A stretch of DNA of 64,000 nucleotides from a bacterium (GCA_043767845.1 JAYUFZ010000008.1:4242-68241); one strand, 5' to 3'. Shown: positions 94 through 35,908, numbered from the stretch's first letter. The notes: generated from the letters alone by a model not told the origin. Numbers and translations: made by a program.

Positions 94-3000
94 TTGAAAA
101 GCCTTATGGTGCATAGCCACTTCAAACCCTCACGACGCACCGTGGCTCTCACCCTGATTGCTGCCATGATGATTCCGCTCGTCACAGCGCTCATAGTCAC
201 AAAGCCTGCCCGAGCGTCTAGCACTGGCCTCATCTCGTCAGGCAAGGGCGTTCTTGCCTACGGCGACACCGGCAATGCCAACAACCCGCGAGTTAGGCCG
301 TGGGCGAGTGGCGCGACCAGCTTTGGTGCCGAGGGCGCGACTGCCTCTTCAATCACCCCGGCGCAAACCGTCATCAAGCAATCACCGACCAGAATCGATG
401 AGTGGATGATGGCGGTTGCCGACACCAGCGGCAACTTGCAGGTCCTCAAGTCGACAGATGGAGGAACCACTTGGTCTAGCGTCATATCCAGCTTCGCGAT
501 TGGCGGCACCGGTACTACCCGGCGGTTCGACTTAGCTTACGAAAGCAATAGCGGCGACGGCGTACTCATATACTCTAGGAACGCTACAACTAATGAGCTC
601 GGCTATCGCACCTGGGCCGGCTCCAGCTGGACCGCTGAAACCACCTACGACCCGGGCGGCACCGCCAATATCGTCACCTGGGTGGAGATAGGCGAACGAG
701 CCAATAGCGATGAACTTGCCGTCGCCTACCTCACCAATGGCGCGACTGATAACATTGGAGCCTTTATCTGGACCGGGAGTAGCAATACTCCGGGCAACGC
801 CACCGGGACAACCTTTGGAACCTGCGATCAGACGGCTGGTACTCCAGATGGCGTCGATAAATGCATGGACATAAACTACGAATCCGCCTCCGGCCGGCCT
901 GTGATGAGCTGGGGCATATCCAGTGCCGGCAATACCACAAACACTATCCGGGCCTCGCGCTGGGATGGATCGGCGTGGACCACCAATACGCTTAATATTG
1001 GTGCAACCGGTGACGACGGCACCTGGGTTGACTGCGAAAGCGACCCCGATCCGACCAGCTTAATTATCGCTTGCAGTAGTTTCGGGGCTTCGACCGCCGA
1101 CGTCCAGGCTTGGACGGTTAGCTCCGGCACGCTCGGGGTGGCCGGCATGGATATAGATACTGCCGCCCATGCTGCTTCTACCGGTCATGCCTACGTGGCG
1201 ACAACATACCTGTATAGCGGTAGTACGTACCGGGCAATTATGATGTATGCCGACGCCGCCGCCGATACGGGCTTTGACTACTCAACATTTAATGGAACGA
1301 CCTGGGCAGTTGAAGTGCAGGCAGCGGCCGGCTATGCCACCCAAGAAGAAAGTATGATTGCCGTCCGCAATGGAGCAACACCGTCCCAAGCATTAGTGCT
1401 CGTTACTGACGCCAGCAATGACCTCTACGCCGAAAAGATTGATATGGATTCCGCCGGCGTTGTGACCATCGCCCGGGCCGACAGCTCCGCCGCCCTGGAA
1501 ACTGTCGTACCCGCCACCCAAGGCTACCCAATGGACTTTGCTTTCGAGCCAGCGCGCCAATCGAGCGTCATCGACCAAAAAGGCTATATATTCGAAAATG
1601 ACGACGAAGATGTGGCTACAGGCGACGCCTACGATGAGAACACCCAACTGGCCGCCGGCAACACAGCAATGTCCATCCAGCAAGGCCGGCGCGTGAATAT
1701 CCGCGCCCAGCTCAACAATAGCGGCGGCGCGCTGGACGGCCACCCGGTCGGGCTATTTTATGACAAGAATGATGGCTATTGGAATAGAGTACGGACCACT
1801 GCCAAACCCAGGACTAGCGCAGGCAGCTGTGATAATACGTTATGGAACTGCAGTACAATCGATACGACGAATGGATCAGGATCAGAGACATCCGTTGCTA
1901 TCGATCCTAACGGTACACCTTGGATATCGAGCGTCGGCGTTGCAGGTGATAGTCTAGTGGTTGGTAAGTACGTGGGGTCTGGCGGAAGCGGTTGTGTTGC
2001 GGGCAATGGATGGCAATGCTTCCTGATAGATGCAGCGGTCAATACCGTGGGTGATAATTCCATAGCTATGGACTCCGCCGGTAACCCTTGGATTTCATAC
2101 TTTAAAGGCACAGGCACAGCCGCCACCTCTGGCTTGGATGTGGCGCGTTATGTTGGATCAGGCGGCACAGGCTGTTCTGGCACAGTCGCTTGGAGTTGTT
2201 CGATTGTTTTGTCAGGCAATACGACTGCTACAAAAAACTCATTGGCTTTTGATAGGCAAGGCAATGCCTGGGTAGCTTACGCCACGTCTCCCACAGGCAT
2301 TTCGGTTGCAAAGTACTCGATTCAAGCTGCAGCATGGACCAACACGCTCGTCGATGCGACTGTCACTGGTTTCAGCGATATTTCAATTGCTTTTGACAAT
2401 GCAGGCTTGCCCTGGATTGCTTACTATGACGCCAATGCCAGCGACTTGAACTTGCGAATTGCTAGAAACGTTGGCACGGGCGGTTCCGGTTGTACCGGTG
2501 GCTCGTCGGCTTGGACCTGCACTGCCATCGATACTACTGGTGATGTTGGTAAGAGCGCTTCAATAGCTATGGATCCCAACGGATATCCGTGGGTGGCCTA
2601 TGGGGACGTGACAAATACTTCGCTCAAGGTTGCCCGCTACGATCCGGCAGGCGGCTACTCGACATGTGCAGGCGGCGTAACCGACTGGGACTGCGTGACG
2701 GTCGATAACGGAGGCACGAACGGGGCCTATGCCTCTATTGCCTTTGATCCATCAGGCAAGGCCTGGATAGCCTATAACGACGATGGTTCGAACAATGATT
2801 TGTGGACAGCAAGATATGTGGGGGGTTCGGCGGGGACAGGCTGTACAAGCGGTTCGAATAATTGGACCTGTGCGTCGATCAATACCACAGGCTCGCAGGG
2901 TCATTATCCATCAATCGCTTTTGACCGTAACGGAAAAGCCACTATTTCCTACCAGGAATACACGTCAAACACCAACCTGCGGTTTGCCCAAATGGCTTAC

Positions 3001-5217
3001 AGCGGCGAAATTCTCATGGCGCCAACTATGGGAGCGGCGGCCGGTGACCCGCTGAACGAATCCCACGCTGATATGACAGCTACAACCGACACGACCAACC
3101 GTGATACAGCCAATTGTATTAGTACTGGCACTTGGAACAACGGGGCGGCCGATGGCGGCCGGGATGCGCTTACTACTTTGCGTGTGGGTGGAGGCACAGC
3201 CGGCAATGGTGGCTGTAGCGAGACCGAGTTTACTATTGATACTTCACAAGCCGTCGTAGGCACCACCTACCGCTTCGTGTTAGCCATTGACGACTCAAGT
3301 ACGAAAGAGAGGAGTCCTTGGCATGGGCCGTCGACCATAACCCAATATCCGACCATAACCGTAACCCCCGACGGCAGCGTCCGATACGGCAAATCGGCGC
3401 TGTATGAACCAGGCACGGCCGACTGTACGGCAGATACCAGTTGGACCTGTGGGCCAGTAAGTACTTGGTCCGGAACTTCTGCCTGGAATGAGCTCGCCTA
3501 TGATGCCCCTACGGATACACCATGGCTTGGCTATTACGCATTAAATGCTTCAGCTGCCAAATATGTCGGAGGGGGAACAGGTTCTGGCTGTGGGGCCAAC
3601 GGCTCGACCGACTGGCTATGCTGGTCGGTCGACGCCGGAGGACAGTACTTAAAGTCGGCGGTAGACCCGTCGGGAAATTTATGGATGGCATATTATACTG
3701 CCGGTACTGTTGCCAGCAAAAACTTGGGCGTTGCCAAATACGTCGGCGGGGGGAAGGGTACTGGTTGCTCGCTTTCCACCGACTGGACCTGCTGGCTGCC
3801 CGACCAGACCGGAGATGTCGGCAATACGCCAGCTATAACTTTCGGTCCGGATGGAAACCCAACCATTTCGGAGTTCGATGGTACCAATAACGCTGTCAAA
3901 GTAGTGCGTTATGTGGGTACGGGTGGCAACTGTGCGATCACTTCCTGGAGCTGCTACTCGATTGACGCGGCAACCAATAGTAATGGCCACCAAACTGGCG
4001 TCGTTTATGACGATGCCGGGACTGCCTGGATTGCCTACCGCAATAGTGCCGGTACTGGATTAAAAGTTGCCCAATTCGTTGGCGGAGGAGGAGCTGGATG
4101 CACGCTTACAGTTCAGTGGAATTGCGTAACTGTAGATACCAGTGTGGCACCAATAAATATGGGGATGGGAATGGGTCCGAATGGACCTGCTGTCACCTAT
4201 GGTAGTAGTGCCAATATCCTGCGTTACGCCAATTATGTTGGCTCCGGCGGGGGCTGTACTTCGGCAGCTTGGAACTGCATTAATGTTATGAATAACGGTG
4301 GCACATATGCTCAAAACGATACTAGCGTATCATTTGATGCTACAGGTAACCCCTGGATAGCCTTCTTTAGTACGGGGGTACCTAATAGCTCATTCCTCTA
4401 TGCTCGCTATCTGGGCGGTGCTACCACCGGCTCTGGCTGCGGTGGTGGCTTGACAACATGGAGCTGTGTGCCTGTAACTGGTGGCACGAACTCCTATGGG
4501 CAGTTCAGTAACATACTGTTTAATACTTCTGGTGAGCCGATGGTAGCCTACGGTTCGAGTGCGGGGCTGGGCACTATTTCGTTTGCCCGCAAGCGCAGCA
4601 ATATTACTAAGTCCTATTACGACGAAACATCGTCATTCACTCAGCATAATGGCGTCCGTTCCGATGGCCAGTGGCGACTGACGAGCGGGCGTTCACCAGC
4701 TACCTCGAGCGACCAACTCTGCGGCGGGGTGAGCGGCAACGCTGGATACTGCGCAGTCGGAACCGAAGATGGTAGCTATGATTCACTGACAGTTAAGGCC
4801 AAAGAAAAAGCCATGTACACCATGCGCTGGGAATATCCGGCCAACGCCGAAGCCCCAGGCGTGACCTGGGTCGGCAAGTCGACCCTAGCTCCAAGCACTG
4901 CCAGTACCGCCGGCGATTTAGCGCTCCAAGTCTACCGTTTCGGTACCACCAACGCCTGGGAGGATGTGGCAACTGATACTGCTAGCACAGATTGCACGGT
5001 CCGCTGTTCACTTACCGGTATGCCAGTCACGGGCGCAGTATCAGACTATTACGAAGCAAGCGGCTCGGTCTACTTCGCTTATTTCCGACTTATTCAACGC
5101 GAAACCACTGCCGCCTTCACACTCTCAACCGATAGCTTCAAAGCCGAGCAGACAGCCAAAGCCCTGCGCGGCGGCCAGTATTTCCGCGACGGCCAGAAGA
5201 CGCCGCTGAACTATTAA
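94..5217 (+). CDS. Giant secreted/cell-surface protein (1707 aa). It has an N-terminal signal/TM segment. At least 11 tandem ~70-aa repeats each carry a Cys pair ('YVGxGGxGC…WxC') and a beta-propeller-blade-like 'SIAxDxxGxPWIAY' motif.
   Basis: Long uninterrupted ORF with clear coding periodicity. The N-terminus MKSL…LTLIAAMMIPLVTALIV is hydrophobic. The motif YVG-GG-GC…W-C…D…G…SIA-D-G-PWIAY recurs about every 210 nt in the translation. No LPXTG motif is present at the C-terminus. Confidence 0.75.
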   Translation: MKSLMVHSHFKPSRRTVALTLIAAMMIPLVTALIVTKPARASSTGLISSGKGVLAYGDTGNANNPRVRPWASGATSFGAEGATASSITPAQTVIKQSPTRIDEWMMAVADTSGNLQVLKSTDGGTTWSSVISSFAIGGTGTTRRFDLAYESNSGDGVLIYSRNATTNELGYRTWAGSSWTAETTYDPGGTANIVTWVEIGERANSDELAVAYLTNGATDNIGAFIWTGSSNTPGNATGTTFGTCDQTAGTPDGVDKCMDINYESASGRPVMSWGISSAGNTTNTIRASRWDGSAWTTNTLNIGATGDDGTWVDCESDPDPTSLIIACSSFGASTADVQAWTVSSGTLGVAGMDIDTAAHAASTGHAYVATTYLYSGSTYRAIMMYADAAADTGFDYSTFNGTTWAVEVQAAAGYATQEESMIAVRNGATPSQALVLVTDASNDLYAEKIDMDSAGVVTIARADSSAALETVVPATQGYPMDFAFEPARQSSVIDQKGYIFENDDEDVATGDAYDENTQLAAGNTAMSIQQGRRVNIRAQLNNSGGALDGHPVGLFYDKNDGYWNRVRTTAKPRTSAGSCDNTLWNCSTIDTTNGSGSETSVAIDPNGTPWISSVGVAGDSLVVGKYVGSGGSGCVAGNGWQCFLIDAAVNTVGDNSIAMDSAGNPWISYFKGTGTAATSGLDVARYVGSGGTGCSGTVAWSCSIVLSGNTTATKNSLAFDRQGNAWVAYATSPTGISVAKYSIQAAAWTNTLVDATVTGFSDISIAFDNAGLPWIAYYDANASDLNLRIARNVGTGGSGCTGGSSAWTCTAIDTTGDVGKSASIAMDPNGYPWVAYGDVTNTSLKVARYDPAGGYSTCAGGVTDWDCVTVDNGGTNGAYASIAFDPSGKAWIAYNDDGSNNDLWTARYVGGSAGTGCTSGSNNWTCASINTTGSQGHYPSIAFDRNGKATISYQEYTSNTNLRFAQMAYSGEILMAPTMGAAAGDPLNESHADMTATTDTTNRDTANCISTGTWNNGAADGGRDALTTLRVGGGTAGNGGCSETEFTIDTSQAVVGTTYRFVLAIDDSSTKERSPWHGPSTITQYPTITVTPDGSVRYGKSALYEPGTADCTADTSWTCGPVSTWSGTSAWNELAYDAPTDTPWLGYYALNASAAKYVGGGTGSGCGANGSTDWLCWSVDAGGQYLKSAVDPSGNLWMAYYTAGTVASKNLGVAKYVGGGKGTGCSLSTDWTCWLPDQTGDVGNTPAITFGPDGNPTISEFDGTNNAVKVVRYVGTGGNCAITSWSCYSIDAATNSNGHQTGVVYDDAGTAWIAYRNSAGTGLKVAQFVGGGGAGCTLTVQWNCVTVDTSVAPINMGMGMGPNGPAVTYGSSANILRYANYVGSGGGCTSAAWNCINVMNNGGTYAQNDTSVSFDATGNPWIAFFSTGVPNSSFLYARYLGGATTGSGCGGGLTTWSCVPVTGGTNSYGQFSNILFNTSGEPMVAYGSSAGLGTISFARKRSNITKSYYDETSSFTQHNGVRSDGQWRLTSGRSPATSSDQLCGGVSGNAGYCAVGTEDGSYDSLTVKAKEKAMYTMRWEYPANAEAPGVTWVGKSTLAPSTASTAGDLALQVYRFGTTNAWEDVATDTASTDCTVRCSLTGMPVTGAVSDYYEASGSVYFAYFRLIQRETTAAFTLSTDSFKAEQTAKALRGGQYFRDGQKTPLNY

Positions 5218-26538: not shown

Positions 26539-27693
26539 ATGCCTACAAAAAAGTCCACTAAAAGCAAAACACCAACAGCCACTCGTTCGCGCGTTGCTCA
26601 TGCTAAGCCAGTCATCGCTACCGAGTCCGGCTGGGCGAAACGCAATCTATTGATTATGGCAGGGGTAGCAGTTTTGGCAGTTGCCGTGGCAGCCAGTGCC
26701 TACATCTACACGACCAAGCACAAGACTGTCACCAAGACGCCTGTCACACTGACTAAGGTCAAGGTCAAGCTCAAGTGGCTCCACAACGCCCAGTTTGCCG
26801 GCCTCTACTATGCCAAAGAAAAGGGTTATTTCGCAGCTGAAGGCTTGGACGTGAGTTTTGAAGAGTGGTCGAGTACCCGTAGTTCGGCAACCAAGATCGT
26901 TGATGCCAAAGAAGCAGATTTCGGTGTTTCAACTGGTACCGATATCATCAACGCCAGAGCCAACTCCGGCCGCAAGGTCGTTGGACTGGCCACTGTCTTC
27001 CAGCATGACCCTGAAGGCTATGTAGCCCTCAAATCATCAGGCATTACTGACCTCAAAAGCGTTGCCGGCCATAATGTTGGGCTCTTCCCTGGAAAGACTA
27101 CGACTATATGGAATGCTATGCTCAAGGCCCAAAACCTATCAAGCCTTAGCTTCAAGCAGACGAATATGGACTTCAGCAAACTGCCCAAGCCTGAGACTAA
27201 GGTCTTGACTGACAAAACAGTTGATGTCTACGCCACCTTCCTGACCGACCAAGCCGTCCGTCTCAAGGCTGACCTAGCGGCCAGTGGCTCGAGCGACGAG
27301 ATCGTGACCTTCAACCCCTACGACTATGGTATTGCCAACTACAATGACACACTCTTCACCTACGATGATATGGTTAAAAACAATCCGGCTCTGGTTCAGA
27401 AATTCGTCAACGCCGCAGTCAAAGGTTGGCATGACGCTATAGCTGACCCGACCGGCGCAGTCACCGCCATCCACGCCTACGACGGTGCCGACTATAAGCC
27501 CTACGAAGCCGCTATTTTCAAGGCCGAAGTGCCTTTCATCCAGACCAACGATGTGCCTCTGCTCTGGACCGATGGTGCAGTCTGGAAGGGTATGTATTCG
27601 ATGATCAACGCTACTGGCTCGCTCAAGACCCAGATCGACGTTACAGCCGCCTACGACTCAAAGTTTGTCCGCAACTACTACAACATCAAGTAA
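26539..27693 (+). CDS. NMT1/THI5-like periplasmic substrate-binding protein (nitrate/sulfonate/bicarbonate/HMP family) with N-terminal TM anchor
   Basis: LKWLHNAQFAGLYYAKEKGYF is the family hallmark. There is a TM anchor. No permease or ATPase genes are adjacent; the protein sits between the kinase genes. Confidence 0.6.
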   Translation: MPTKKSTKSKTPTATRSRVAHAKPVIATESGWAKRNLLIMAGVAVLAVAVAASAYIYTTKHKTVTKTPVTLTKVKVKLKWLHNAQFAGLYYAKEKGYFAAEGLDVSFEEWSSTRSSATKIVDAKEADFGVSTGTDIINARANSGRKVVGLATVFQHDPEGYVALKSSGITDLKSVAGHNVGLFPGKTTTIWNAMLKAQNLSSLSFKQTNMDFSKLPKPETKVLTDKTVDVYATFLTDQAVRLKADLAASGSSDEIVTFNPYDYGIANYNDTLFTYDDMVKNNPALVQKFVNAAVKGWHDAIADPTGAVTAIHAYDGADYKPYEAAIFKAEVPFIQTNDVPLLWTDGAVWKGMYSMINATGSLKTQIDVTAAYDSKFVRNYYNIK

Positions 27694-27711
27694 TAGCTAG
27701 AGAGATCACCA

Positions 27712-29565
27712 ATGAAGCTGGCTAATAGGAGTTCGCTTAGCACCAAGCTAACCGTGTACTTCCTAATAGCCGCTTTGTTGCCGGTTGGCATTGCAGGCGT
27801 GTTGATACTGAGAGTAGCCCAGAAAAACATCGACACATTGACCTTTTCAAACTTAGAACTAGCCAGAAACCTCAAAATCAACCAGATCAATCTATTGATA
27901 GAAAAAGAATCTGAGGTAGTAAATGCACTATCTAAAACCCAGACGGTTCAAGATAGTGCCATGAGCTTAAAAAACAAGCAGCCCCTCAGCCCTGCGCAAT
28001 TGTCTGCTTATAAGCCGCTCGTTGAAGTCGAGGGTGAATTCATTGAGGTTTTTCTCATAGATAGTGAAACGGCTAAGGTTTATGCATCAAGCAATACGGC
28101 CGAACTTACAAAAAACAAACAACTTGATGAATCGTTCGTACGTGGCAAGCAGGCGCTATTTGTACAAGATTTATATTTCGACTACTCTAATTTTGTACCG
28201 CGATATACTATCACCACTCCAATCATTATCGGCGGCCAATTGGTGGGTGTCTTCGGTGCTCATCTCGAACTCGATGCCATCGACCAGATCATGGCCGAGC
28301 CCCTAGGTATTGGCGATACCAGCGAGACATATTTAATTAATAAAGCGCATCAGTTCGTCTCAGACAGTCGCTTCGATCCGAATTCCAAATTCAATCTAGG
28401 TCTCAATACGGCACAGTCGGAGTCGGTATTGGCGGGCAAGGAAGGAAAAGGAATTTACAAGAATTACCGCGGCAAACTCGTGTATGGGAACTACGTCTAC
28501 ATTCCTGAGAGACACCTAGCAATCTTCGCCGAAGTTGAGCAACACGAAGCACTGGCCTCACTCCGTGAATTTGAACGGCTTATCTTGTATGCAGCTCTGG
28601 CTAGCTGCCTCTTTCTCGTCCTACTCACGCGCTTGTTTACCAACCAATTCTTAAAGCCGATAAGAAAGCTAACCGAGGGCGTAGAAGCCTTCGGCCGTGG
28701 CCAGCTGACGACGCGTATTAGTATTACTTCCAAAGATGAGGTCCGCAAGCTAGCTGAAACCTTCAATAGCATGGCCCAGTCGGTCCAAGACAGCATTACC
28801 AAGCTGCGCGAGCTGGATAAACTCAAATCCGAGTTCCTAGCCATTGCCTCGCACAACCTACGCACACCGCTGTCGGTCATCATGGGCTACGCCGATGGTA
28901 TGCGCGATGCTAACAATAAGCTCAATAAAGATGCCGCTATCATTGGCTCCTACGCCCAGCGACTCAACGTCTTTGCTGAAGATATGCTACTAATCTCTGA
29001 AATTGAGATTGGCGGCAATCTGGCCACCGTTACTCAAAAAACGCCGACCGACATCACTACGCTCATCGGGGAGATAGCTACGCAGATTACCCCGATGGTC
29101 TCAGAGAAGAAGCTATCTCTAGGAGTAGTAGCCGCCAAAAAAATCCCGATGGTCAATATTAATAAGCAATATGTTAAAGATGCCATTTGGAATATCCTCG
29201 ATAACGCTATAAAATTCACCGGCGAGAACGGCATTATCACCATGACGGCCAAGCCGGTCAAGGACAAAGTGACGGTCACTATTGCCGATACTGGAGCGGG
29301 TATCGCCAAGGAAGAGCTACCAATGCTCTTTACCAAATTCCACCGCGGGACTAGCACTATGGTTTACAACTACGAGGGCACCGGTCTCGGTCTGTACGTC
29401 GCTAAGCTGATTGTGGAGAGTAATGGGGGGCAGATAGAGGTTGAAAGCGTCGAAGGTAAAGGAACGACAGTGACGCTTATGTTCCCCGTAGCGCCAGTCG
29501 AGCCAAAGTCCAAGGACGCCCTCACCCCCAAAGCTGTCAAAACCATCGCCGACACATTGGAGTAG
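27712..29565 (+). CDS. Sensor histidine kinase with extracytoplasmic Cache-like domain, HAMP, HisKA, HATPase_c
   Basis: H-box IASHNLRTPLSVIMGY. G-boxes DTGAGI and GTGLGL. Two TM segments flank a ~250-aa sensor domain. Confidence 0.75.
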   Translation: MKLANRSSLSTKLTVYFLIAALLPVGIAGVLILRVAQKNIDTLTFSNLELARNLKINQINLLIEKESEVVNALSKTQTVQDSAMSLKNKQPLSPAQLSAYKPLVEVEGEFIEVFLIDSETAKVYASSNTAELTKNKQLDESFVRGKQALFVQDLYFDYSNFVPRYTITTPIIIGGQLVGVFGAHLELDAIDQIMAEPLGIGDTSETYLINKAHQFVSDSRFDPNSKFNLGLNTAQSESVLAGKEGKGIYKNYRGKLVYGNYVYIPERHLAIFAEVEQHEALASLREFERLILYAALASCLFLVLLTRLFTNQFLKPIRKLTEGVEAFGRGQLTTRISITSKDEVRKLAETFNSMAQSVQDSITKLRELDKLKSEFLAIASHNLRTPLSVIMGYADGMRDANNKLNKDAAIIGSYAQRLNVFAEDMLLISEIEIGGNLATVTQKTPTDITTLIGEIATQITPMVSEKKLSLGVVAAKKIPMVNINKQYVKDAIWNILDNAIKFTGENGIITMTAKPVKDKVTVTIADTGAGIAKEELPMLFTKFHRGTSTMVYNYEGTGLGLYVAKLIVESNGGQIEVESVEGKGTTVTLMFPVAPVEPKSKDALTPKAVKTIADTLE

Positions 29566-29644: not shown

Positions 29645-29719
29645 CGGTCCCATCGTCTAACGGTTAGGACACCGGATTCTCATTCCGACAATCGGGGTTC
29701 GATTCCCCGTGGGACTACC
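29645..29719 (+). tRNA. tRNA-Glu(CUC), CCA encoded
   Basis: GGTCCCATCGTCTAACGGTTAGGACACCGGATTCTCATTCCGACAATCGGGGTTCGATTCCCCGTGGGACTACCA. Acceptor 7 bp (one G-U pair). Anticodon loop UUCUCAU. Resembles the bacterial tRNA-Glu consensus TCGTCTA…AGGACACCG. Confidence 0.8.
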
Positions 29720-29727
29720 ACAGAAAA

Positions 29728-29751
29728 CGCCTCACTTTTGTGGGGCTTTTT
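29728..29751 (+). terminator. Intrinsic terminator after tRNA-Glu
   Basis: GCCTCAC-tttt-GTGGGGC followed by TTTTT. Confidence 0.5.
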
Positions 29752-29756
29752 CTATT

Positions 29757-29812
29757 CAGGAAGTTACTAAGCCAGAACTTACAAAAAACAGCCCCACCGC
29801 CAGGTCCCAGGA
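29757..29812 (-). repeat. Copy A of a ~50-nt terminator-like element
   Basis: Minus-strand reading: CCCCACCACC-TATCCCCTCCTGGGACCT-GGCGGTGGGG-CTGTTTTTT. About 85% identical to copy B at 31258..31312. Each copy sits 50–65 nt past a minus-strand stop codon. Confidence 0.6.
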
Positions 29813-29855
29813 GGGGATAGGTGGTGGGGCGAAGGAGTCGCTAGACAAAGCTAGC

Positions 29856-31235
29856 TCAGGCAGGCAGGGCTTTAGGCCATTTGATGTTACGAATGTGGCC
29901 AGTGCGGTCGATCTCACCGTCGAGATGTTGGGACTTATGGAGCTGGTCCCAAACGTTTTGCTGCAAGCTACGGGTGTAGCTTTTGGCGTTATCGGCGCTG
30001 AGCGTTACAGTATAGCTTTGGTCGGTGCGGCCGCTGAGACGGTGGCTGGCATCAATGCCCTTGAAATCGGGCCAATGCGGATTATCGAGCTCTCCACCGT
30101 GGCCACCGGCTACTTCCCAGTGGTCGGAAGCCCAACGTTCAATGTCGTAGCGATACTTGGTCGCGTAGACCGGATCGTTGCGATAAACCGGGTCATTGCT
30201 ATAGGTGTAGTACACTTCGGTGCGCGTCTTGGACCGGCTACCAGTACATTGCTTTGTTCGCTCAGTGAAGGTGCCGTTGCCATTGCTAACCGTCTCAGAC
30301 CCGCAGTCATAGGTGTAATTTTCCGTGCCATCGGGAACGTCGCGTGCGTGACTATGGCTATTGGTTTCGTAGTGGTCAACGACCTTATTGTATCGAAAAA
30401 CCGCCGGGTAGTTACTCGTTTCGCGGCCTCCAGCCGGAACCGTCCAATCCTCTTCATGGAAAGTCTGGATTGATTCGACTTCCACCTGACGCTGCCAATT
30501 GAGCTCGCTAACTGTAAGAGCCAGAGGCTTGGTAGAAAGGAACAGGAAGTGGACGACCATATAGGTGAGCAGCAGCGTCAGGATCACACCAGCGGCAATA
30601 AACTCCCACCGGTATTGCCGATAGGCCTCACCGATATTCTTTGGCTTAGCCTTGTAACTTTCGACGCGAGTAGCGATCTGTCCAGTGCGGGGGATCTGCG
30701 AGCCTCGATGGGTGTAGTGTTCGGCGGTGCGGACATCGTCACTGTGCCCGGTTATGAGCCTTTCGCCCTCAACGAGCGGGTCGGGCAAGAGTCTTTCGAT
30801 GCGAGCGTCGGCTTCGACCGTATCTTTGTCGAAATGAACGCCCTTGGCGTAGTCACCAGTGACGTATCTGGCTACTGGAGCCGTGAAATCGTCGCCGTCG
30901 CGCTTTTGCCCACAATGCTGACAAAATTTCTGGTTGCCTTGATTAGTAGTGCCGCAGTGGCCGCAATTCCATTCCGCACCGGCGTTTGCCAGTGCAAGCT
31001 CGGCGGCATCCGTAATCTCTCGGGCACCGCGCGGTAGGTATGGCGCTTCTTCGGGAGTCAACGTCACATTGCGCGGATCGTGGCAGTTTGGGCATGTTGT
31101 CGTTAACCCAGGGATGCCAGTAGTGAGACAGTTCGAACAATCCCACATGCCTTCGAGAGTTTTCAATCGTACCTCCGGTAATTGTAGGAACATATCAAGG
31201 TGCCGGCATATTATGAAACTATTCTTACTAAACAT
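29856..31235 (-). CDS. Hypothetical protein with two N-terminal zinc ribbons, one TM, and a ~230-aa extracytoplasmic C-terminal domain
   Basis: CSNC…CPNC and CGHCG…CQHCG zinc-ribbon pairs. TM segment FIAAGVILTLLLTYMVVHFLFL. The C-terminal domain is rich in Tyr, Asn, Thr and Ser. The ORF track starts on a TTG at 31238, so the adjacent ATG was used. Has its own terminator and is GC-rich. Confidence 0.5.
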   Translation of the reverse strand: MFSKNSFIICRHLDMFLQLPEVRLKTLEGMWDCSNCLTTGIPGLTTTCPNCHDPRNVTLTPEEAPYLPRGAREITDAAELALANAGAEWNCGHCGTTNQGNQKFCQHCGQKRDGDDFTAPVARYVTGDYAKGVHFDKDTVEADARIERLLPDPLVEGERLITGHSDDVRTAEHYTHRGSQIPRTGQIATRVESYKAKPKNIGEAYRQYRWEFIAAGVILTLLLTYMVVHFLFLSTKPLALTVSELNWQRQVEVESIQTFHEEDWTVPAGGRETSNYPAVFRYNKVVDHYETNSHSHARDVPDGTENYTYDCGSETVSNGNGTFTERTKQCTGSRSKTRTEVYYTYSNDPVYRNDPVYATKYRYDIERWASDHWEVAGGHGGELDNPHWPDFKGIDASHRLSGRTDQSYTVTLSADNAKSYTRSLQQNVWDQLHKSQHLDGEIDRTGHIRNIKWPKALPA

Positions 31236-31257
31236 CAATATTATTATTTCAACAATA

Positions 31258-31312
31258 AAAAACAGCCCCGTAGCCAGGTCCCAAGAGGGGATAGGCAGTG
31301 GGGCTTGGGCCG
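31258..31312 (-). repeat. Copy B of the terminator-like element
   Basis: Shares the loop TATCCCCTC(T/C)TGGGACCTG, the GGGGC…GCCCC arms and the T-run with copy A. Confidence 0.6.
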
Positions 31313-31370
31313 CGGATGGCGGCTAGGGGATGTGCAGTAGCACATGGTAATCGGCAGGGATTGGACGGGG

Positions 31371-32570
31371 TCAAATCTGAGTCAGAACTCTTAGGATCAT
31401 GCCGACCATCGACCAATCGACTGTTTCGGCCTCGAGTATTTGGCCCAGGGTGGCGACTTCGACATAGGTGCGTTCGGTGCTGCCGGGGGCGCCGTGCGGC
31501 TGGCCGTATTGACCCTTGAGGTAGGTGATTTCGGTGTCGGTCAGGTCGACGGCGAAAAGGGTGGCTTTGTGGGCCGAGAAAGTGGCCATAAGCTGCCTTT
31601 GGCCACAGGGGACAAAGCGCTCAAAGGCCAGGTCCAAGCCCGTTTCTTCCTGGCATTCGTGCTTGGCAACCAAGCGCGGATCGGTGACCATCTGTGGATC
31701 GGAGCCTCCGGGCAATTCCCAGACATACCCAGAATCGTTGGAGACCGAGGGGCGGAACTCCCGGATCAGCACCACGGTACTGTCGTTGATCGGTACTGCC
31801 CTACGATAGAGCATCACGGCCGAAATGTCCGGCCTGGAAAGCACGATCTCATTGGTCTTGGAACGGCCTTCGGCGGCGATGTAGACCTCGACGTGCAGGG
31901 CCCACAAGTAAACCCTTTGCAGCTGAGGCCCTTTACGCACCGTCGTAAGCACGCGGGCATGCTCCAGCGTATTACCCGCTGCCTTGAGGGCTCGATACCA
32001 GCTCTGGAAATGCGTGGTCCGCCAGATGTAGAGCGGCACTTCGCGCTCGCCGTCACTACGCCAGCTGCCTTCGCCAAGTAGCTCAATGGCCCTAGCAACG
32101 GTGCCGGCCGGCGTGTCAGAGAATGGTACCTGGAATTTTTCGGCCTTGTACCCTAGATAGCGGTTTTTGACGCTTTCGTAGGGAAATCCCAGCACGATTT
32201 TGCCGGAGTCTTCCCATTCGCCCCACTCCACATTGGTCGTAAAGCCGGGCATGGTTTCCAGGTCGCGTGGCACCCAGGCAAGGATCACATCGGCCAAGTG
32301 CAAGCAGGTTGTTTCCCACTTCACTTGGTCGAGGTACTCACCGCGGTAGGTGGTGACGCCGTTGGAGTCGGGCCGGTCTTCGGGCACAAAAACCACGCCG
32401 TCGTAGCCGAGCATGGCCAGGTAACGCAGGGCCTCGGGCCGCCAGGAAGTTACACCCTCATGCCGCGGTGTCGGGCCAAGCAGGAAAATCGATTTTGCAT
32501 AGCTAGCCGGTGGTTCTTCGCGAGCGTAAACAATTGTCATAGTACGAGGTGGTGCAGTGGCCTCAGTCAT
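31371..32570 (-). CDS. Fusion protein: N-terminal nucleoside 2-deoxyribosyltransferase-like (NDT/DNPH1/Rcl-type Rossmann-like) domain plus C-terminal Nudix hydrolase domain
   Basis: N-terminal IFLLGPTP…GYDGVVFVPED…ADVILAWVP is an NDT-like pattern. The Nudix box is ELPGGSDPQMVTDPRLVAKHECQEETGL (GX5EX7REUXEEXGU). About 60–70% GC in sampled stretches, against about 47% in the flanking kinase genes. Minus-strand -35/-10 candidates lie at about 32610..32640. Confidence 0.6.
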   Translation of the reverse strand: MTEATAPPRTMTIVYAREEPPASYAKSIFLLGPTPRHEGVTSWRPEALRYLAMLGYDGVVFVPEDRPDSNGVTTYRGEYLDQVKWETTCLHLADVILAWVPRDLETMPGFTTNVEWGEWEDSGKIVLGFPYESVKNRYLGYKAEKFQVPFSDTPAGTVARAIELLGEGSWRSDGEREVPLYIWRTTHFQSWYRALKAAGNTLEHARVLTTVRKGPQLQRVYLWALHVEVYIAAEGRSKTNEIVLSRPDISAVMLYRRAVPINDSTVVLIREFRPSVSNDSGYVWELPGGSDPQMVTDPRLVAKHECQEETGLDLAFERFVPCGQRQLMATFSAHKATLFAVDLTDTEITYLKGQYGQPHGAPGSTERTYVEVATLGQILEAETVDWSMVGMILRVLTQI

Positions 32571-32742
32571 GGCTAGCCTCTCGGGGGTAGAAAAACTTTT
32601 CAGAACTCTGTTGTTATATCATCGAGCTGCAGGCTTTACAAGCATCAGCTGACTTTTGATTAAAACATCGCTACAAAATCTGCAAATAATTTGTAAACTT
32701 TGTGGTGCGTCCCGCCGATGGCGGGACTGTGGGGCAGAGCCC

Positions 32743-33045
32743 CTAGGTGGTCACAATGTGGAAGATTATGGCCAGCCCGGAGACGATGCCCATGACGTAG
32801 AGCAGGAGCAACAGTATGGCAATGGTTTCGCCGCGGCCGTTGCCGTTGAGGCGGGAGAGCTTGTAGAGGCTGGTGACCCCGAGTAGGAACACAGCGGCGG
32901 TCAGCCTGAGCGCTTCGCTCGATTGGGCACCCGGCAGATGGCTGGAGAGCCACCACAAGGTCAGCGCGGCCGTGGCCACGAAGCAGACGGTGGAGAGCTT
33001 GCCCCAGACCTGGGCGCGGCTCGGCGAGTAGGTCGACATTGTCAT
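32743..33045 (-). CDS. Small 3-TM membrane protein (~100 aa)
   Basis: Three hydrophobic helices. GGAGGA SD 5 nt upstream of the ATG at 33045 (the ORF-track TTG is at 33057). The perfect hairpin GTCCCGCC-gat-GGCGGGAC lies just downstream at 32714..32732. Confidence 0.45.
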   Translation of the reverse strand: MTMSTYSPSRAQVWGKLSTVCFVATAALTLWWLSSHLPGAQSSEALRLTAAVFLLGVTSLYKLSRLNGNGRGETIAILLLLLYVMGIVSGLAIIFHIVTT

Positions 33046-33233
33046 CTGATCCTCCAAGGATCGTGTGGGTACGGCTACTTAACCTAGCAGATGAGGATCC
33101 TTCAATGGATGTACTATTGTATTACTTTACTGTACTTTTGTCAATATTATCAATCATCGAGCCGATCCCGTCCCTAGGATAGGCTTTTAGATTGAAATAT
33201 TGCCCCCGACGCTGCATAATAAGCGTAACAACG

Positions 33234-35108
33234 ATGGTGGAGATGGCGGACCAAAAGGATCGAAATCTCAATATTCTAGCGGCCGTCCAGGCAGCCCTGG
33301 GGGCGCTTATTAGTAGTATCATCCTGATTCTTTTCAAACTCAACCCCAACTATTTGCGTGATGCTGGACTGAGCTGGGTGGTGGTGATACTCGGCTTCAC
33401 CGTGGTCGGGTATTTCCTGAGCGCGCACCAACTGATTCGCTACTTCAGTACTTCTATATCGGTCTTTATTATGTCCTGCATCAGCATTGCCAACCTGGTG
33501 CTCGTCATTGCCCAAACCGGTGGCCTCGACTCGCCCTACAATGCTTTTTTGATACTTGCGTTGGTAACCACTGGGTTGTTTAGTCTGGTAGCGACGATCA
33601 TTGGGCTCACGGCCCTCATAACCTACTATGTCGTTGCTTTTGCCCAACACCATTTCGAGTCCAGCTTTTTGGCGGCACACCTTATCCAGTTCGTCATGAT
33701 GCTCTCGGCCGGGGGCCTAGCACTGTGGGTACATAACCGTGGGCGCAAAACAGTCGCTCAAACCCAGCAAATGGCTAGCCTTTCTGGGCAGCTCGGCGAA
33801 GAGCAGCTTAAAGCCCAAGTACTCATGAATAGTATGGGTGAGGGGGTAGTAGTGGTAAACACCAGCCGCCACGTCCAGCTCTTCAACCCGGCGGCCCAAG
33901 CGCTCACCGGCTGGGACGCGGCCACAGCCCAAAACTTGAACTATCTGACCATCATGGGGCTCAAGAAAAACAACGACAGCGATGTGACCGACGCCGACGA
34001 CCCCTTCCTCCAAGCTTGGGAGAAAAAAGCCACTGTAATACGTAGCGACCTGATACTCGGCACCAAGTCCGGACGCAAAGTCGCCCTGACCATGACAGTT
34101 TCACCAATTTATGACGGAAATAACAATATCTCCGGCGGTATTGCCCTTTTCCGTGATATATCGCAGGAAAAAGAGGTTGAGCGCCAACGCAACGAATTTA
34201 TTTCCACTGCTAGCCATGAAATGCGCACCCCGGTGGCCGCAATCGAAGGCTACATAGCTCTAGCCATGAACCCAGATATCTCCACCATCGATGAGCGGGC
34301 GCGCGGTTTTCTGGGCAAAGCCCATGATAGCATCCAGCATCTTGGCGCGCTGTTTAAAGACTTGCTCTCGGTCACCAAGGTCGAGGAGGGGAAGATCGGC
34401 GGCGCCATTGAGCCAGTCGAAATCGGCAAGATGGTGCGCGAAGTGGTCAGTGACATGCAGTTTAATGCTCAGAAGAAGAACCTGACGCTGCTGTTGCAAT
34501 CCGGGGGCATGACCTTGGGCGACAAAGACGTCATGCCCCTCTTCATGGTCAAGGGCAATGGCGAGCGGCTGCGGGAAGTGACCATGAACTTAATCGAAAA
34601 CGCCCTTAAATACACCCAGCAAGGAGGCATAACCGTCGACGTCTCCGGGACAAAGGACTTAGTGACAGTGAAGGTCATCGACACCGGCGTCGGGATTGCC
34701 GCCGAAGACATTACCCATTTGTTCCAGAAATTCTACCGTGTCGATAGTACTGCCACCCGCACTATTGGCGGCACCGGTCTAGGCCTCTACTTGGTACGCA
34801 CCATTATCGAGTACTTCAACGGCCGCGCTTGGGTGGAAAGCATACTCGGCCGGGGTAGTACTTTTGCCTTTAGCCTACCACGCGTCGCCAACGACGCCAC
34901 CGCTGCCAGCCTCAACGATGCGGCAGCAGCCACGGCTCAAGCGCCAGGTTCGATTCTTCCGTCACCCTCGCCCAAGCCTGCACCAGCTCCCACCGAAACC
35001 ATCATTCATCCCGTCGTCGTGGCGGCTCCAGCAGTGCAGGAAATGCCCGTCCCGGCCAGTATGCAGAGCACACCACTCCCAGAGAGCAGCCTTGCCAAGC
35101 CAGTGTAA
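33234..35108 (+). CDS. Sensor histidine kinase (multi-TM N-terminal region, PAS, HisKA, HATPase_c) with Pro-rich C-terminal tail
   Basis: H-box FISTASHEMRTPVAAIEGY and G-boxes. About 5 TM helices at the N-terminus. The ORF-track start is a TTG at 33192, so the ATG at 33234 was preferred. Confidence 0.75.
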   Translation: MVEMADQKDRNLNILAAVQAALGALISSIILILFKLNPNYLRDAGLSWVVVILGFTVVGYFLSAHQLIRYFSTSISVFIMSCISIANLVLVIAQTGGLDSPYNAFLILALVTTGLFSLVATIIGLTALITYYVVAFAQHHFESSFLAAHLIQFVMMLSAGGLALWVHNRGRKTVAQTQQMASLSGQLGEEQLKAQVLMNSMGEGVVVVNTSRHVQLFNPAAQALTGWDAATAQNLNYLTIMGLKKNNDSDVTDADDPFLQAWEKKATVIRSDLILGTKSGRKVALTMTVSPIYDGNNNISGGIALFRDISQEKEVERQRNEFISTASHEMRTPVAAIEGYIALAMNPDISTIDERARGFLGKAHDSIQHLGALFKDLLSVTKVEEGKIGGAIEPVEIGKMVREVVSDMQFNAQKKNLTLLLQSGGMTLGDKDVMPLFMVKGNGERLREVTMNLIENALKYTQQGGITVDVSGTKDLVTVKVIDTGVGIAAEDITHLFQKFYRVDSTATRTIGGTGLGLYLVRTIIEYFNGRAWVESILGRGSTFAFSLPRVANDATAASLNDAAAATAQAPGSILPSPSPKPAPAPTETIIHPVVVAAPAVQEMPVPASMQSTPLPESSLAKPV

Positions 35109-35185: not shown

Positions 35186-35908
35186 ATGCCAAAACTGCTG
35201 CTCGTCGAAGATGACATTAATTTGCGAGATATCTACTCGGCCCGCTTCATGGCTGAGCAGTACACTGTCATCACCGCCGCCGACGGCGAGGAAGCCCTAG
35301 CGACAGCTGTTCGTGAACGCCCCGACTTAATTATTCTCGATGTCATGATGCCGAAGATAAGTGGCTTCGATGTCCTAGACATTCTGCGTTCGACACCCGA
35401 GACCAAAGAAACCAAGATCATCATGATGACCGCTCTTTCCCAAGAAACAGACAAGGCTCGTGGCGAAGCATTGGGCGTTAATAAGTACCTCATCAAGTCC
35501 CAAGTGACCCTAGAGGACGTCGTCAGCTCGGTCAAAGAAATCCTCGGCGGGAGCACTGTGCCAGCTGGTGTCGTCACGAGCCCTGTTGTCGCACCAAGCT
35601 CACCCACAGCCACCAACGCACTGGCCGAGCCCGAAGTTACCGCCCCACAAGTCACGCCAGGTGCCGATGCAGCAGTAACCACTGAGCCCGAAACCGCAGT
35701 CACAGAGCCTGATTCGAGCACTACTTCAGCTGATATGGATGAGCCAAAGATGGCTACTAGCCCAACAGAACCTGCTATCACTACTGCCAGTATCGCCGCA
35801 GCACCTGCTAGCAGTAATGACAGCCAAGCCTCTACTGGCTCGTCGTCGAGCGCCCCGAGTGAGCCAACACCTGGCGCCGATACCAGCTCCAGCGAAGCAA
35901 TCCTCTAA
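35186..35908 (+). CDS. Response-regulator receiver domain fused to a ~120-aa Ser/Thr/Pro/Ala-rich disordered tail (no DNA-binding output)
   Basis: LLLVEDD…DLIILDVMMPKISG…K receiver motifs, then the low-complexity tail VVAPSSPTATNALAEP…. Confidence 0.7.
   Translation: MPKLLLVEDDINLRDIYSARFMAEQYTVITAADGEEALATAVRERPDLIILDVMMPKISGFDVLDILRSTPETKETKIIMMTALSQETDKARGEALGVNKYLIKSQVTLEDVVSSVKEILGGSTVPAGVVTSPVVAPSSPTATNALAEPEVTAPQVTPGADAAVTTEPETAVTEPDSSTTSADMDEPKMATSPTEPAITTASIAAAPASSNDSQASTGSSSSAPSEPTPGADTSSSEAIL

Follow-up and report, generated by a model that had tools for sequence, protein, structure and literature searches.

A small mosaic accessory islet of three functionally unlinked genes probably fills an ancestral tRNA-Glu(CTC)/HK2-RR2 junction at ~29757-33180 of the window, a 64-kb stretch of a Saccharimonadia (TM7/CPR) genome. 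At 3.4 kb and with three unrelated minus-strand genes, it looks like an ordinary acquired accessory patch, and like neither a new mobile element nor a new defence system. The anatomy of the islet was observed directly, and its arrangement was reproduced by an independently assembled 5.7-kb Logan contig (L001) that crosses both junctions. A first-pass annotation had placed three minus-strand genes beside tRNA-Glu; the ORFs were recovered at 29856-31193/31238, 31371-32570, and 32743-33045/33057. The features of the region, by position in the window, are:

26539-27693, plus strand: NMT1/THI5-type binding protein, left part of the variable segment (Pfam NMT1)
27712-29565, plus strand: HK1, orphan histidine kinase, left part of the variable segment (Pfam HAMP/HisKA/HATPase_c)
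29646-29720, plus strand: tRNA-Glu (anticodon CTC), conserved anchor of the site (ARAGORN; Rfam tRNA, 58.7 bits)
29729-29755, plus strand: intrinsic terminator of the tRNA, left islet boundary (terminator scan)
29783-29830, minus strand: copy A of a 48-nt hairpin and U6 element, terminator of the ZnR gene (direct repeat D1)
29856-31193 (ORF to 31238), minus strand: zinc-ribbon membrane protein, ZnR (ORF; sub-threshold DZR/Zn_Ribbon matches)
31210-31238, minus strand: promoter-like site of the ZnR gene, TTGATG-17-CATAAT, 9/12 (scan)
31257-31304, minus strand: copy B of the 48-nt hairpin and U6 element, terminator of the NDT-Nudix gene (direct repeat D1)
31371-32570, minus strand: NDT-Nudix, an NDT-like (DrHyd/ARC-type) N-terminal domain and an ADP-ribose-pyrophosphatase-type Nudix domain
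32709-32743, minus strand: two GC-rich hairpins without a U-run where the miniprotein gene ends (fold -25.7 kcal/mol, z -4.6)
32743-33045 (ORF to 33057), minus strand: orphan 100-aa miniprotein with three hydrophobic segments, GGAGGA ahead (ORF)
33116-33144, minus strand: near-consensus promoter of the miniprotein gene, TTGACA-17-TACAAT, 11/12 (scan)
33192-33220, plus strand: HK2 promoter TTGAAA-17-CATAAT, right islet boundary (promoter scan, alignment)
33234-35108, plus strand: HK2, PAS-HisKA-HATPase kinase, PhoR/VicK-like (Pfam)
35186-35908: RR2, response regulator downstream of HK2

The cargo begins ~36 nt past the 3' end of the tRNA, after the tRNA's own terminator. In an alignment with the closest relative (L013, 61% HK2 identity), conservation extends just past this terminator, through GCCTCA...TGGGGCTTTTTCTAT (to ~29756); the sequences are unrelated beyond, and homology restarts at the HK2 promoter, which is conserved in both L013 and L014. 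The L013 locus is otherwise collinear (DUF3048-DPBB-FKBP-HK0-RR0 ... tRNA-Glu(CTC) ... HK2-RR-ScpA-ScpB-RluB); its tRNA-HK2 interval is occupied by HD, a 139-aa gene, and CNNM. Histidine kinases had been reported on both sides of the islet, and Pfam matches for HK1 and HK2 agree. The islet had also been said to interrupt a block of two-component genes; there is no such unit, and HK1 and its binding protein are themselves lineage-specific, with no ortholog in L013 or in 80 metagenome loci. The region left of the tRNA varies as well. The GC content of this segment (26539-29565) is 48-52%.

HK2 is conserved across Saccharimonadia (homologs 47-62% identical, all named ones labelled Saccharimonadia). 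The comparison drew on 82 HK2 loci, each with at most 10 kb of flanking sequence per side. In 74 of them an RR2-like gene follows HK2, and the operons are therefore orthologous. The tRNA-Glu(CTC) was found upstream of the HK2 ortholog in 45/82 loci, with diverse cargo between the two in 21. It abuts the HK2 gene (<=350 nt) in 24/82, three of these having the tRNA in the orientation seen in the window, so that the empty site anticipated by the first-pass annotation does occur. None of the three islet genes was present in any of the 82 loci within the sequence compared. The variability of the site was observed directly: many relatives have an empty site, others one filled with unrelated genes, and the comparison of HK2 loci supports insertion or replacement. 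At ~61% HK2 identity, gene-order decay could explain the differing content without a discrete transfer, and the difference could reflect gain here or loss elsewhere. Saccharimonadia widely retain the tRNA-Glu(CTC)/HK2-RR2 junction as a landmark with varying occupancy, which makes it handy for studying gene gain in reduced genomes.

The islet had been described as GC-rich and compositionally distinct, a description that sliding windows did not sustain for the islet as a unit. With the 64-kb window as the only baseline, its GC content is 56.4% against a mean of 53.3% (sd 1.8% for 3.3-kb windows; +1.7 sd), the 15-21 kb part of the window is equally GC-rich (56.0-56.5%), and the tetranucleotide distance of the islet to the window (0.17-0.21) is average (mean 0.183). 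The reported contrast of 73% to 47% GC was a product of picking extreme 60-nt windows: those in the islet have a mean GC of 56.5%, those in HK2 also peak at 75%, and HK1, at 47.9%, is itself unusually low. GC3 is 0.603 in the zinc-ribbon gene, 0.695 in NDT-Nudix, and 0.876 in the miniprotein gene (window mean 0.608 +/- 0.059). Skewed composition is therefore retained for two genes, mildly for NDT-Nudix (+1.5 sd) and clearly for the miniprotein gene, the sole outlier (+4.5 sd), whose codon composition is foreign. It does not hold for the zinc-ribbon gene, which is compositionally native and has no compositional trace of foreign origin.

The three genes are separate transcription units. The claim that each has its own promoter and terminator stood for part of the signals: the scan detected promoters for two of the three genes and a hairpin with U6 for two of three, but the weaker promoter-like site of NDT-Nudix was identified by eye, and the miniprotein hairpins have no U-run. 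Copies A and B of the 48-nt element are 88% identical, and the element was not found elsewhere. Copy A folds at -27.4 kcal/mol (z -4.0) and is followed by UGUUUUUU; copy B folds at -22.7 kcal/mol (z -3.2). Integron attC cassettes were considered and rejected: AAAAAAC bounds the 48-nt hairpins, which lack GTTRRRY and end in U6, and there is no integrase.

ZnR is a rare single-pass membrane protein with an uncertain start (31193, the 436-aa NCBI call, or 31148). Its two CxxC...CxxC zinc ribbons, disordered linker, single TM helix, and C-terminal domain of ~220 aa match the earlier zinc-ribbon/TM/extracytoplasmic reading; the ribbons are predicted to be cytoplasmic and the beta-rich domain extracytoplasmic. 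The Pfam DZR score (21 bits) is below the threshold of 27.3. Over 21 homologs, the four cysteines of the second ribbon and the motifs DHYET, DNGNGTFTE, and PVYATKY are invariant, and the four cysteines of the first ribbon are kept in at least 90%. The ectodomain was modelled by AF2 with pLDDT 81-94. The third gene encodes a hydrophobic protein with three hydrophobic segments, consistent with its annotation as a 3-TM miniprotein. Both NCBI and Logan call it as 100 aa, and a search of 1.84 billion representatives returned no homolog.

An NDT-like–Nudix domain structure had been proposed for the second gene and was confirmed by a PF15891 (Nuc_deoxyri_tr2) match at residues 26-128 (36.5 bits, cutoff 30), a weak NUDIX match below the Pfam gathering cutoff (17.6, cutoff 21.1), and an AF2 model that shows both domains. 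In the model, the NDT half folds as an N-deoxyribosyltransferase-like Rossmannoid in which an acidic residue past the central strand is conserved, and the Nudix half has the Nudix alpha/beta/alpha fold with an N-terminal beta domain as in ADPRases. The family consensus for the Nudix box is GGS...LAAxExxEETGL (canonical: GX5EX7REUXEEXGU), in which E305, E309, and G311 are invariant and E308 is nearly so; the Glu of TTNxExG is also invariant in the family. The canonical first Glu and Arg are not conserved, in which the family differs from ADPRase/NDP-sugar Nudix enzymes (E. coli NudF 1g0s, YffH 3o61, human NUDT5); identity to these is only 14-20%, and here the Nudix domain is joined to another domain that itself looks catalytic. 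Set against NDT/DNPH1/MilB-type N-glycosidases of the DrHyd superfamily, the PF15891 half may be a transferase, a hydrolase, or a mere binding domain. The fusion itself is not new. Bacillus phage G gp334 (AEO93593.1), which Iyer et al. (2021, PMC7824862) already name among fusions of an ARC-superfamily domain to Nudix, is 46% identical over residues 11-397 (97% of the length), and it and the jumbo-phage fusions have the same layout, with an N-terminal NDT/DrHyd/ARC-like Rossmannoid and a C-terminal Nudix domain.

The NDT-Nudix family is widespread in jumbo-phage contigs, Actinobacteria, and CPR bacteria (1821 homologs; 138 IMG/VR matches), and other Saccharibacteria carry it in unrelated contexts. 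Relatives with 58-61% identity are located on an actinophage-like contig, where the gene sits between ThyA and, two small ORFs further, DHFR, on a contig with a large serine recombinase ~7 kb away, and on an actinobacterial chromosome. In a rough NJ tree without support values, the window copy groups with the actinobacterial chromosomal and actinophage-like copies, and the family tree departs from taxonomy. The horizontal origin suggested earlier for the islet gains partial support here, since the nearest NDT-Nudix relatives have phage-like or mobile surroundings or come from Actinobacteria.

It is unlikely that nothing was acquired and that the islet consists of old resident genes, from which relatives differ through loss and shuffling. 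The native GC3 and codon use of the ZnR gene, the average tetranucleotide profile, the frequency of NDT-Nudix in CPR bacteria, and the distance of the nearest sampled relatives all fit such a history; the presence of islet genes in 0/82 orthologous loci, the miniprotein GC3 4.5 sd above the window mean, the unrelated contexts of NDT-Nudix in other Saccharibacteria, and a rough tree at odds with taxonomy, with 58%-identical copies in Shimazuella and an actinobacterial chromosome, argue against it. Quite unlikely, too, is a decayed integrase-mediated island at the tRNA-Glu 3' end that has since lost its integrase and att repeats. It would account for cargo starting ~36 nt beyond the tRNA, for an interval that is filled oftener when the tRNA 3' end faces it (10/13 vs 11/32, Fisher p = 0.019, phylogeny ignored), and for the NDT-Nudix relative near a serine recombinase. 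However, Pfam annotation of the genes at 21.5-36.6 kb revealed no integrase, transposase, or recombinase, and 36.6-40.6 kb is collinear with L013 core genes, so that the reported lack of integrase and transposase holds, by L013 synteny, to ~40.6 kb. A scan of the 64 kb allowing <=3 mismatches gave no second copy of the terminal 18 or 29 nt of the tRNA, so that the partial tRNA-Glu 3' repeat suspected earlier was not found, and 29-34 kb contains no flanking direct repeat. The boundary lies past the conserved terminator and not within the tRNA, the segment left of the tRNA is also variable, and no recombinase is found among the 25 commonest of 52 cargo Pfam families in 21 other lineages. Horizontal acquisition, as claimed in the first-pass annotation, thus keeps its lineage-specific cargo, its site empty in many relatives, and a raised GC3 in two of three genes, and loses the classic tRNA-island footprint, there being neither an integrase nor a repeat of the tRNA 3' end. 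Variable lineage-specific cargo within conserved bounds, beside a tRNA and empty in many relatives, is shared with tRNA-linked islands and recombination hotspots; the islet differs from these in that it has no integrase, att duplication, or mobility genes, comprises only 3.4 kb and three genes, and is mostly native in composition.

For an acquired accessory patch, the reading preferred here, we infer that the cargo most likely entered by DNA uptake followed by recombination through the conserved flanks, because the flanks are conserved and mobility genes are absent, which is the whole basis for this route. Insertion into the tRNA by an integrase is the less likely route. Incoming cargo would replace earlier cargo, e.g., the CNNM/HD set of the nearest relatives. 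The three genes were probably gained at separate times: amelioration is complete in the zinc-ribbon gene but not in the miniprotein gene.

A single functional module (e.g., for defence or signalling), in which ZnR senses, NDT-Nudix acts on nucleotides, and the miniprotein acts on the membrane, is very improbable. The genes are adjacent and on the same strand within one islet, those for ZnR and NDT-Nudix share the paralogous 48-nt terminator found nowhere else, and NAD/ADP-ribose conflict systems do include NDT/DrHyd-type and Nudix domains (PMC9503650, PMC7824862). However, co-occurrence was absent. Among the NDT-Nudix loci examined, 5 cellular and 80 viral, none had a homolog of ZnR or the miniprotein, and none of 3 cellular and 4 viral ZnR loci had NDT-Nudix (tblastn, E <= 1e-3). 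The suggested joint receptor and nucleotide-enzyme system was therefore absent from all of these loci, and the module is largely refuted by this missing co-occurrence. The miniprotein without homologs, the promoter-like and terminator signals of individual genes (two of three each by scan), and the differing codon composition of the three genes argue in the same direction. No protein matched PADLOC-DB 2.0 at E <= 0.01, in agreement with the earlier view that this is not a known defence gene set, and there was no NCBIfam or informative PHROG match. It is also decidedly unlikely that NDT-Nudix, perhaps with the miniprotein, was captured from a high-GC actinobacterial host or its phage, with the enzyme degrading host nucleotides, or metabolites derived from NAD/ADP-ribose, where host and epibiont meet. 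Such an origin is considered because of the rough-tree grouping and the raised GC3; if true, a conflict or scavenging enzyme would have passed from host to epibiont.

The islet alone matters little, as the NDT-Nudix fusion family was known before and already flagged by comparative genomics, and the islet is one more accessory islet at a variable chromosomal site. With many members in CPR bacteria, Actinobacteria, and jumbo phages, the family is a reasonable target for enzymology relevant to nucleotide scavenging or ADP-ribose metabolism in organisms unable to make nucleotides. From its sequence and model, we infer that NDT-Nudix may be a two-step nucleotide-processing enzyme. The Nudix half would cleave a nucleoside-diphosphate-X substrate, e.g., ADP-ribose or an NAD-derived metabolite, and the NDT/DrHyd half would split or exchange the bond joining base and sugar in the Nudix product, in a putative role in nucleotide scavenging or in clearing ADP-ribose-type metabolites. 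The phage neighbours (dNMP kinase, ThyA, DHFR, and DNA methylases) suggest work on the dNTP pool, whereas a PARG neighbour and the ADPRase fold suggest work on ADP-ribose.

The stretch between tRNA-Glu(CTC) and the histidine kinase HK2 is a small accessory islet of mosaic make-up, at a junction whose content varies, and is of a familiar kind; it is neither a classical tRNA island nor a functional three-gene system. It holds a member of an enzyme family that has been flagged but is biochemically uncharacterised, a rare membrane protein, and an orphan.

Features of the islet and its flanks
26539-29565, left of the tRNA: NMT1/THI5-type binding protein and orphan kinase HK1
29646-29720, plus strand: tRNA-Glu(CTC) (ARAGORN and Rfam)
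29729-29755: hairpin with T-run after the tRNA (terminator scan)
29783-29830 and 31257-31304: two copies of a 48-nt element, hairpin and U6 on the minus strand
29856-31193 (up to 31238), minus strand: zinc-ribbon protein ORF (445 aa in the Logan call, 436 aa in the NCBI call)
31371-32570, minus strand: NDT-Nudix ORF (399 aa)
32743-33045, minus strand: miniprotein ORF (100 aa, counted from the ATG behind GGAGGA)
33192-33220, plus strand: HK2 promoter, TTGAAA-17-CATAAT (promoter scan, alignment with the relatives L013 and L014)

The first-pass annotation had described three minus-strand genes after tRNA-Glu with kinases on either side, and ORF calls, ARAGORN, Rfam, and Pfam agree on this layout; Pfam identified histidine kinases on both sides. 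A search of 29-34 kb against Rfam (E ≤ 1) found the tRNA alone. Since an independently assembled 5.7-kb contig (L001) covers both junctions at 99.5-100% identity, the arrangement is not an assembly chimera. The domain reading was also supported by Pfam: the NDT-Nudix protein matched PF15891 (Nuc_deoxyri_tr2) at 36.5 bits (cutoff 30) and NUDIX weakly (17.6 bits, cutoff 21.1), and zinc-ribbon matches of the membrane protein were below threshold. No Pfam match was detected for the miniprotein or for the alternative ORFs beneath it. The claim that each gene carries its own promoter and terminator holds in part. Promoter-like sites were found by scan for the miniprotein (11/12 consensus positions, with a GGAGGA Shine-Dalgarno sequence) and for the zinc-ribbon gene (9/12), and terminators were found for two genes, but the promoter candidate of NDT-Nudix (TTGTAA-17-TATAAC) is weaker and was read by eye. 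The TTG at 33192, the mechanical ORF start of HK2, is the -35 box of a promoter kept in L013 and L014; the real start of HK2 therefore lies near 33234-33243, at about 33234 in the NCBI call or at 33243 (MADQ), which agrees with the family consensus.

A scan of GTDB species genomes with HK1 for an empty site returned only four distant paralogs from unrelated phyla. The empty-site test was based on homologs of HK2 together with a metagenome scan using an HK2 alignment. The best homologs were 61-62% identical; the best 120 matches span 47-62%, and every named source among them is Saccharimonadia, Saccharibacteria or Patescibacteria. The comparison set comprised 80 metagenome loci plus L013 and L014 (82 in all). 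An RR2-like response regulator gene directly follows HK2 in 74 of these, indicating an orthologous operon. tRNA-Glu(CTC) was found upstream of HK2 in 45/82 loci, and in 24 of the 45 it lies within 350 nt, on the opposite strand in 21 and on the same strand as in the window in three (L045, L082, L089). The empty site proposed in the first-pass annotation, with the tRNA directly adjoining the kinase, is thus present in 24/82 loci. In the other 21 a gap of 0.4-8.5 kb holds ordinary varied cargo, including ABC transporters, CYTH, cyclopropane synthase, an HtrA-type protease, SAM synthetase, a class I W/Y (TrpRS/TyrRS-type) tRNA synthetase, CNNM, and HD; no recombinase was present among the 25 most frequent of the 52 Pfam families in this cargo. 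None of the three islet proteins had a homolog in any of the 82 loci, over up to 10 kb on either side. Given the linkage in 45 loci, the abutting genes in 24, and the absence of the three genes from all 82, the junction is ancestral and frequently unoccupied, and the three genes that fill it here are specific to this lineage. The gap was filled more often where the 3′ end of the tRNA points toward HK2 (10/13 vs 11/32, Fisher p = 0.019, kinship ignored), which is only a hint because the loci are not phylogenetically independent. The association of tRNA-Glu(CTC) with HK2-RR2 (PhoR/VicK-like) was observed across Saccharimonadia, and the strand of the tRNA flips between lineages.

The nearest locus, L013 (GCA_038230095.1), is collinear with the window on both sides of the site: DUF3048, DPBB, FKBP, HK0, and RR0 on the left and HK2, RR, ScpA, ScpB, RluB, peptidase S11, Der, and Pth on the right, with a same-strand tRNA-Glu(CTC) between these blocks. 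The cargo differs. L013 has a 378-aa DUF8173 protein ahead of the tRNA; behind it come HD, a 139-aa gene, and CNNM. None of these had a match in the window, where the NMT1-type binding protein and HK1 precede the tRNA and the islet genes follow it. CNNM is next to HK2 in L014 as well. DNA alignment with L013 showed conservation through the tRNA and its terminator to about 29756, loss of similarity beyond this point, and its return at the HK2 promoter (33192-33220). The NMT1/THI5-type protein and HK1 were absent from L013 and from all other HK2 loci compared, so the variable segment extends over approximately 26.5-33.2 kb with the tRNA in its middle. The NMT1/THI5-HK1 part has the lowest GC content of the region (48-52%) and a raised tetranucleotide deviation. 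A single discrete transfer and slower turnover are not separable here, as the relatives sampled are remote, at 61% identity or less.

The islet had been described as compositionally distinct, with sampled 60-nt windows reaching about 73% GC against about 47% in the adjacent kinase genes. This contrast is an artefact of extreme 60-nt windows: over all its 60-nt windows the islet averages 56.5%, peaks of 75% occur in HK2 too, and HK1 is unusually low at 47.9%. The claim was inflated; the observation itself is real. The GC content of the islet (56.4%, compared with 53.3% for the window, sd 1.8% for 3.3-kb windows) is at the top of the distribution, yet the region at 15-21 kb likewise reaches 56.0-56.5%, and the tetranucleotide distance of the islet to the window (0.17-0.21) is average (mean 0.183 ± 0.028). 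The most deviant tetranucleotide stretches were 1-2.4 kb and 25.5-27 kb; the strongest deviation was observed at 1-2400, within a 1707-aa ORF (94-5217), with L1 of 0.26-0.28 against a mean of 0.18. Gene by gene, the islet is a mosaic. Relative to the 53 ORFs of these 64 kb (mean GC3 0.608 ± 0.059), the zinc-ribbon gene is typical (0.603), NDT-Nudix is 1.5 sd above the mean (0.695), and the miniprotein 4.5 sd above (0.876, the next highest value in the window being 0.705).

The mobility signatures expected of a classic tRNA-island footprint, as the first-pass annotation had called it, were not found. As had been noted, no integrase or transposase is annotated from 21.5 to about 40.6 kb. The last 29 or 18 nt of the tRNA have no second copy in the window at up to three mismatches, including near 33.1 kb where a check for a 3′ repeat had been suggested, and no direct repeat brackets the islet. 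One structured repeat was detected, the 48-nt element, whose copies flank the zinc-ribbon gene on both sides. They are 88% identical, the loop being almost the same and the stems different. Predicted hairpin energies are -27.4 kcal/mol (29783-29830) and -22.7 kcal/mol (31257-31304), and each hairpin is followed by U6 on the minus strand; the first copy therefore terminates the zinc-ribbon gene and the second the NDT-Nudix gene. No further copy was found in the window, in 97 loci or in IMG/VR. An integron attC site was rejected, as core sites are missing and a U-run is present. We read the element as a terminator that was duplicated, and it may record how the zinc-ribbon gene was inserted. Horizontal acquisition retains partial support, from the site comparison, from two of the three genes, and from the mobile habits of the NDT-Nudix family, but not in the form of a classical tRNA island.

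Only 37 homologs of the zinc-ribbon protein were found, the best 39% and 36% identical on short contigs, with a set at about 29% from Agathobacter/Eubacterium rectale; IMG/VR contributed four more. The three-TM miniprotein, searched against 1.84 billion cluster representatives, matched itself and two spurious multi-stretch sequences only. The strong GC bias at its third codon positions suggests that the frame is truly coding and that its origin is foreign or highly unusual. The three proteins did not co-occur in the cellular or viral loci examined. NDT-Nudix homologs in other Saccharibacteria (L002, L004) have unrelated neighbours, and NDT-Nudix was not found near the zinc-ribbon homologs of three loci (L010-L012) or in the four viral zinc-ribbon loci. 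Of the viral loci of the NDT-Nudix family, 80 were kept; about 50 encode full-length fusions and the remainder the NDT-like domain only. Neither a zinc-ribbon protein nor a miniprotein homolog was detected in them. The islet proteins had no match in PADLOC or NCBIfam and a single weak match of unknown function in PHROGs, in agreement with the earlier statement that this is no known defence gene set. With no co-occurrence in these loci and nothing in PADLOC or NCBIfam, a functional three-gene system was rejected.

The NDT-Nudix family has 1821 members (E ≤ 0.001); the best 120 are mostly full length at 48-64% identity, and named sources include Saccharibacteria, Parcubacteria, Shimazuella (Bacillota), and Magnetospirillaceae. 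A 61%-identical copy directly follows thymidylate synthase (ThyA) on a 65%-GC contig (L095, 1-21287), with DHFR two small ORFs downstream. This contig looks like an actinophage, since it carries RNR with an intein, WhiB, MazG, Macro, and RNase H; a TnpB-like gene is also present. Near a 60%-identical copy are Fic, 3 kb away, and a large serine recombinase, at about 7 kb; a 58%-identical copy is on an actinobacterial chromosome with PknB/PASTA and Rv2175c. Of 138 matches in IMG/VR, many lie on contigs 200-600 kb long. Among the IMG/VR loci, dNMP kinase and DNA methyltransferases are the commonest neighbours; Ro60/vWA also recurs, and PARG and RNA ligase occur as single cases. The gene is GC-richer than its surroundings in L002 (8001-9164, 63.5 vs 55.6%), L004 (8001-9215, 60.5 vs 51.1%), and L096 (8881-10056, 52.9 vs 36.1%), which hints at repeated transfer from GC-rich donors. 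In a rough NJ tree the copy in the window grouped with actinobacterial and actinophage-like copies; this grouping and the GC excess both fit repeated horizontal transfer, but as evidence they are weak.

The match to Bacillus phage G gp334 (AEO93593.1, annotated "NUDIX hydrolase") has 46% identity and covers 97% of the length. Iyer et al. (2021; PMC7824862) cite this phage protein as a new ADP-ribosyl-cyclase superfamily member. The family was thus already flagged. A literature search on PF15891/Nuc_deoxyri_tr2 found no paper. PADLOC, NCBIfam, and PHROGs were uninformative, as was a PDB sequence search (chance-level matches only), and structure prediction was needed; the AF2 model has a pLDDT of 89 and a pTM of 0.83. 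Invariant residues are T111-T112-N113-x-E115-x-G117 and, in the Nudix helix, E305, E309, and G311; E308 is almost invariant. Conservation in the family does not extend to the first Glu or to the Arg of the canonical Nudix box. We infer a two-step enzyme: an NDP-X compound would be cut by the Nudix half, and the product would then be attacked at its N-glycosidic bond by the NDT-like half. Saccharibacteria depend on nucleotide salvage. In such a bacterium the predicted activity would fit nucleotide scavenging or the disposal of an ADP-ribose-type metabolite; an alternative to the ADP-ribose role would be one in the deoxynucleotide pool, to which the ThyA/DHFR and dNMP kinase/methyltransferase neighbours point.
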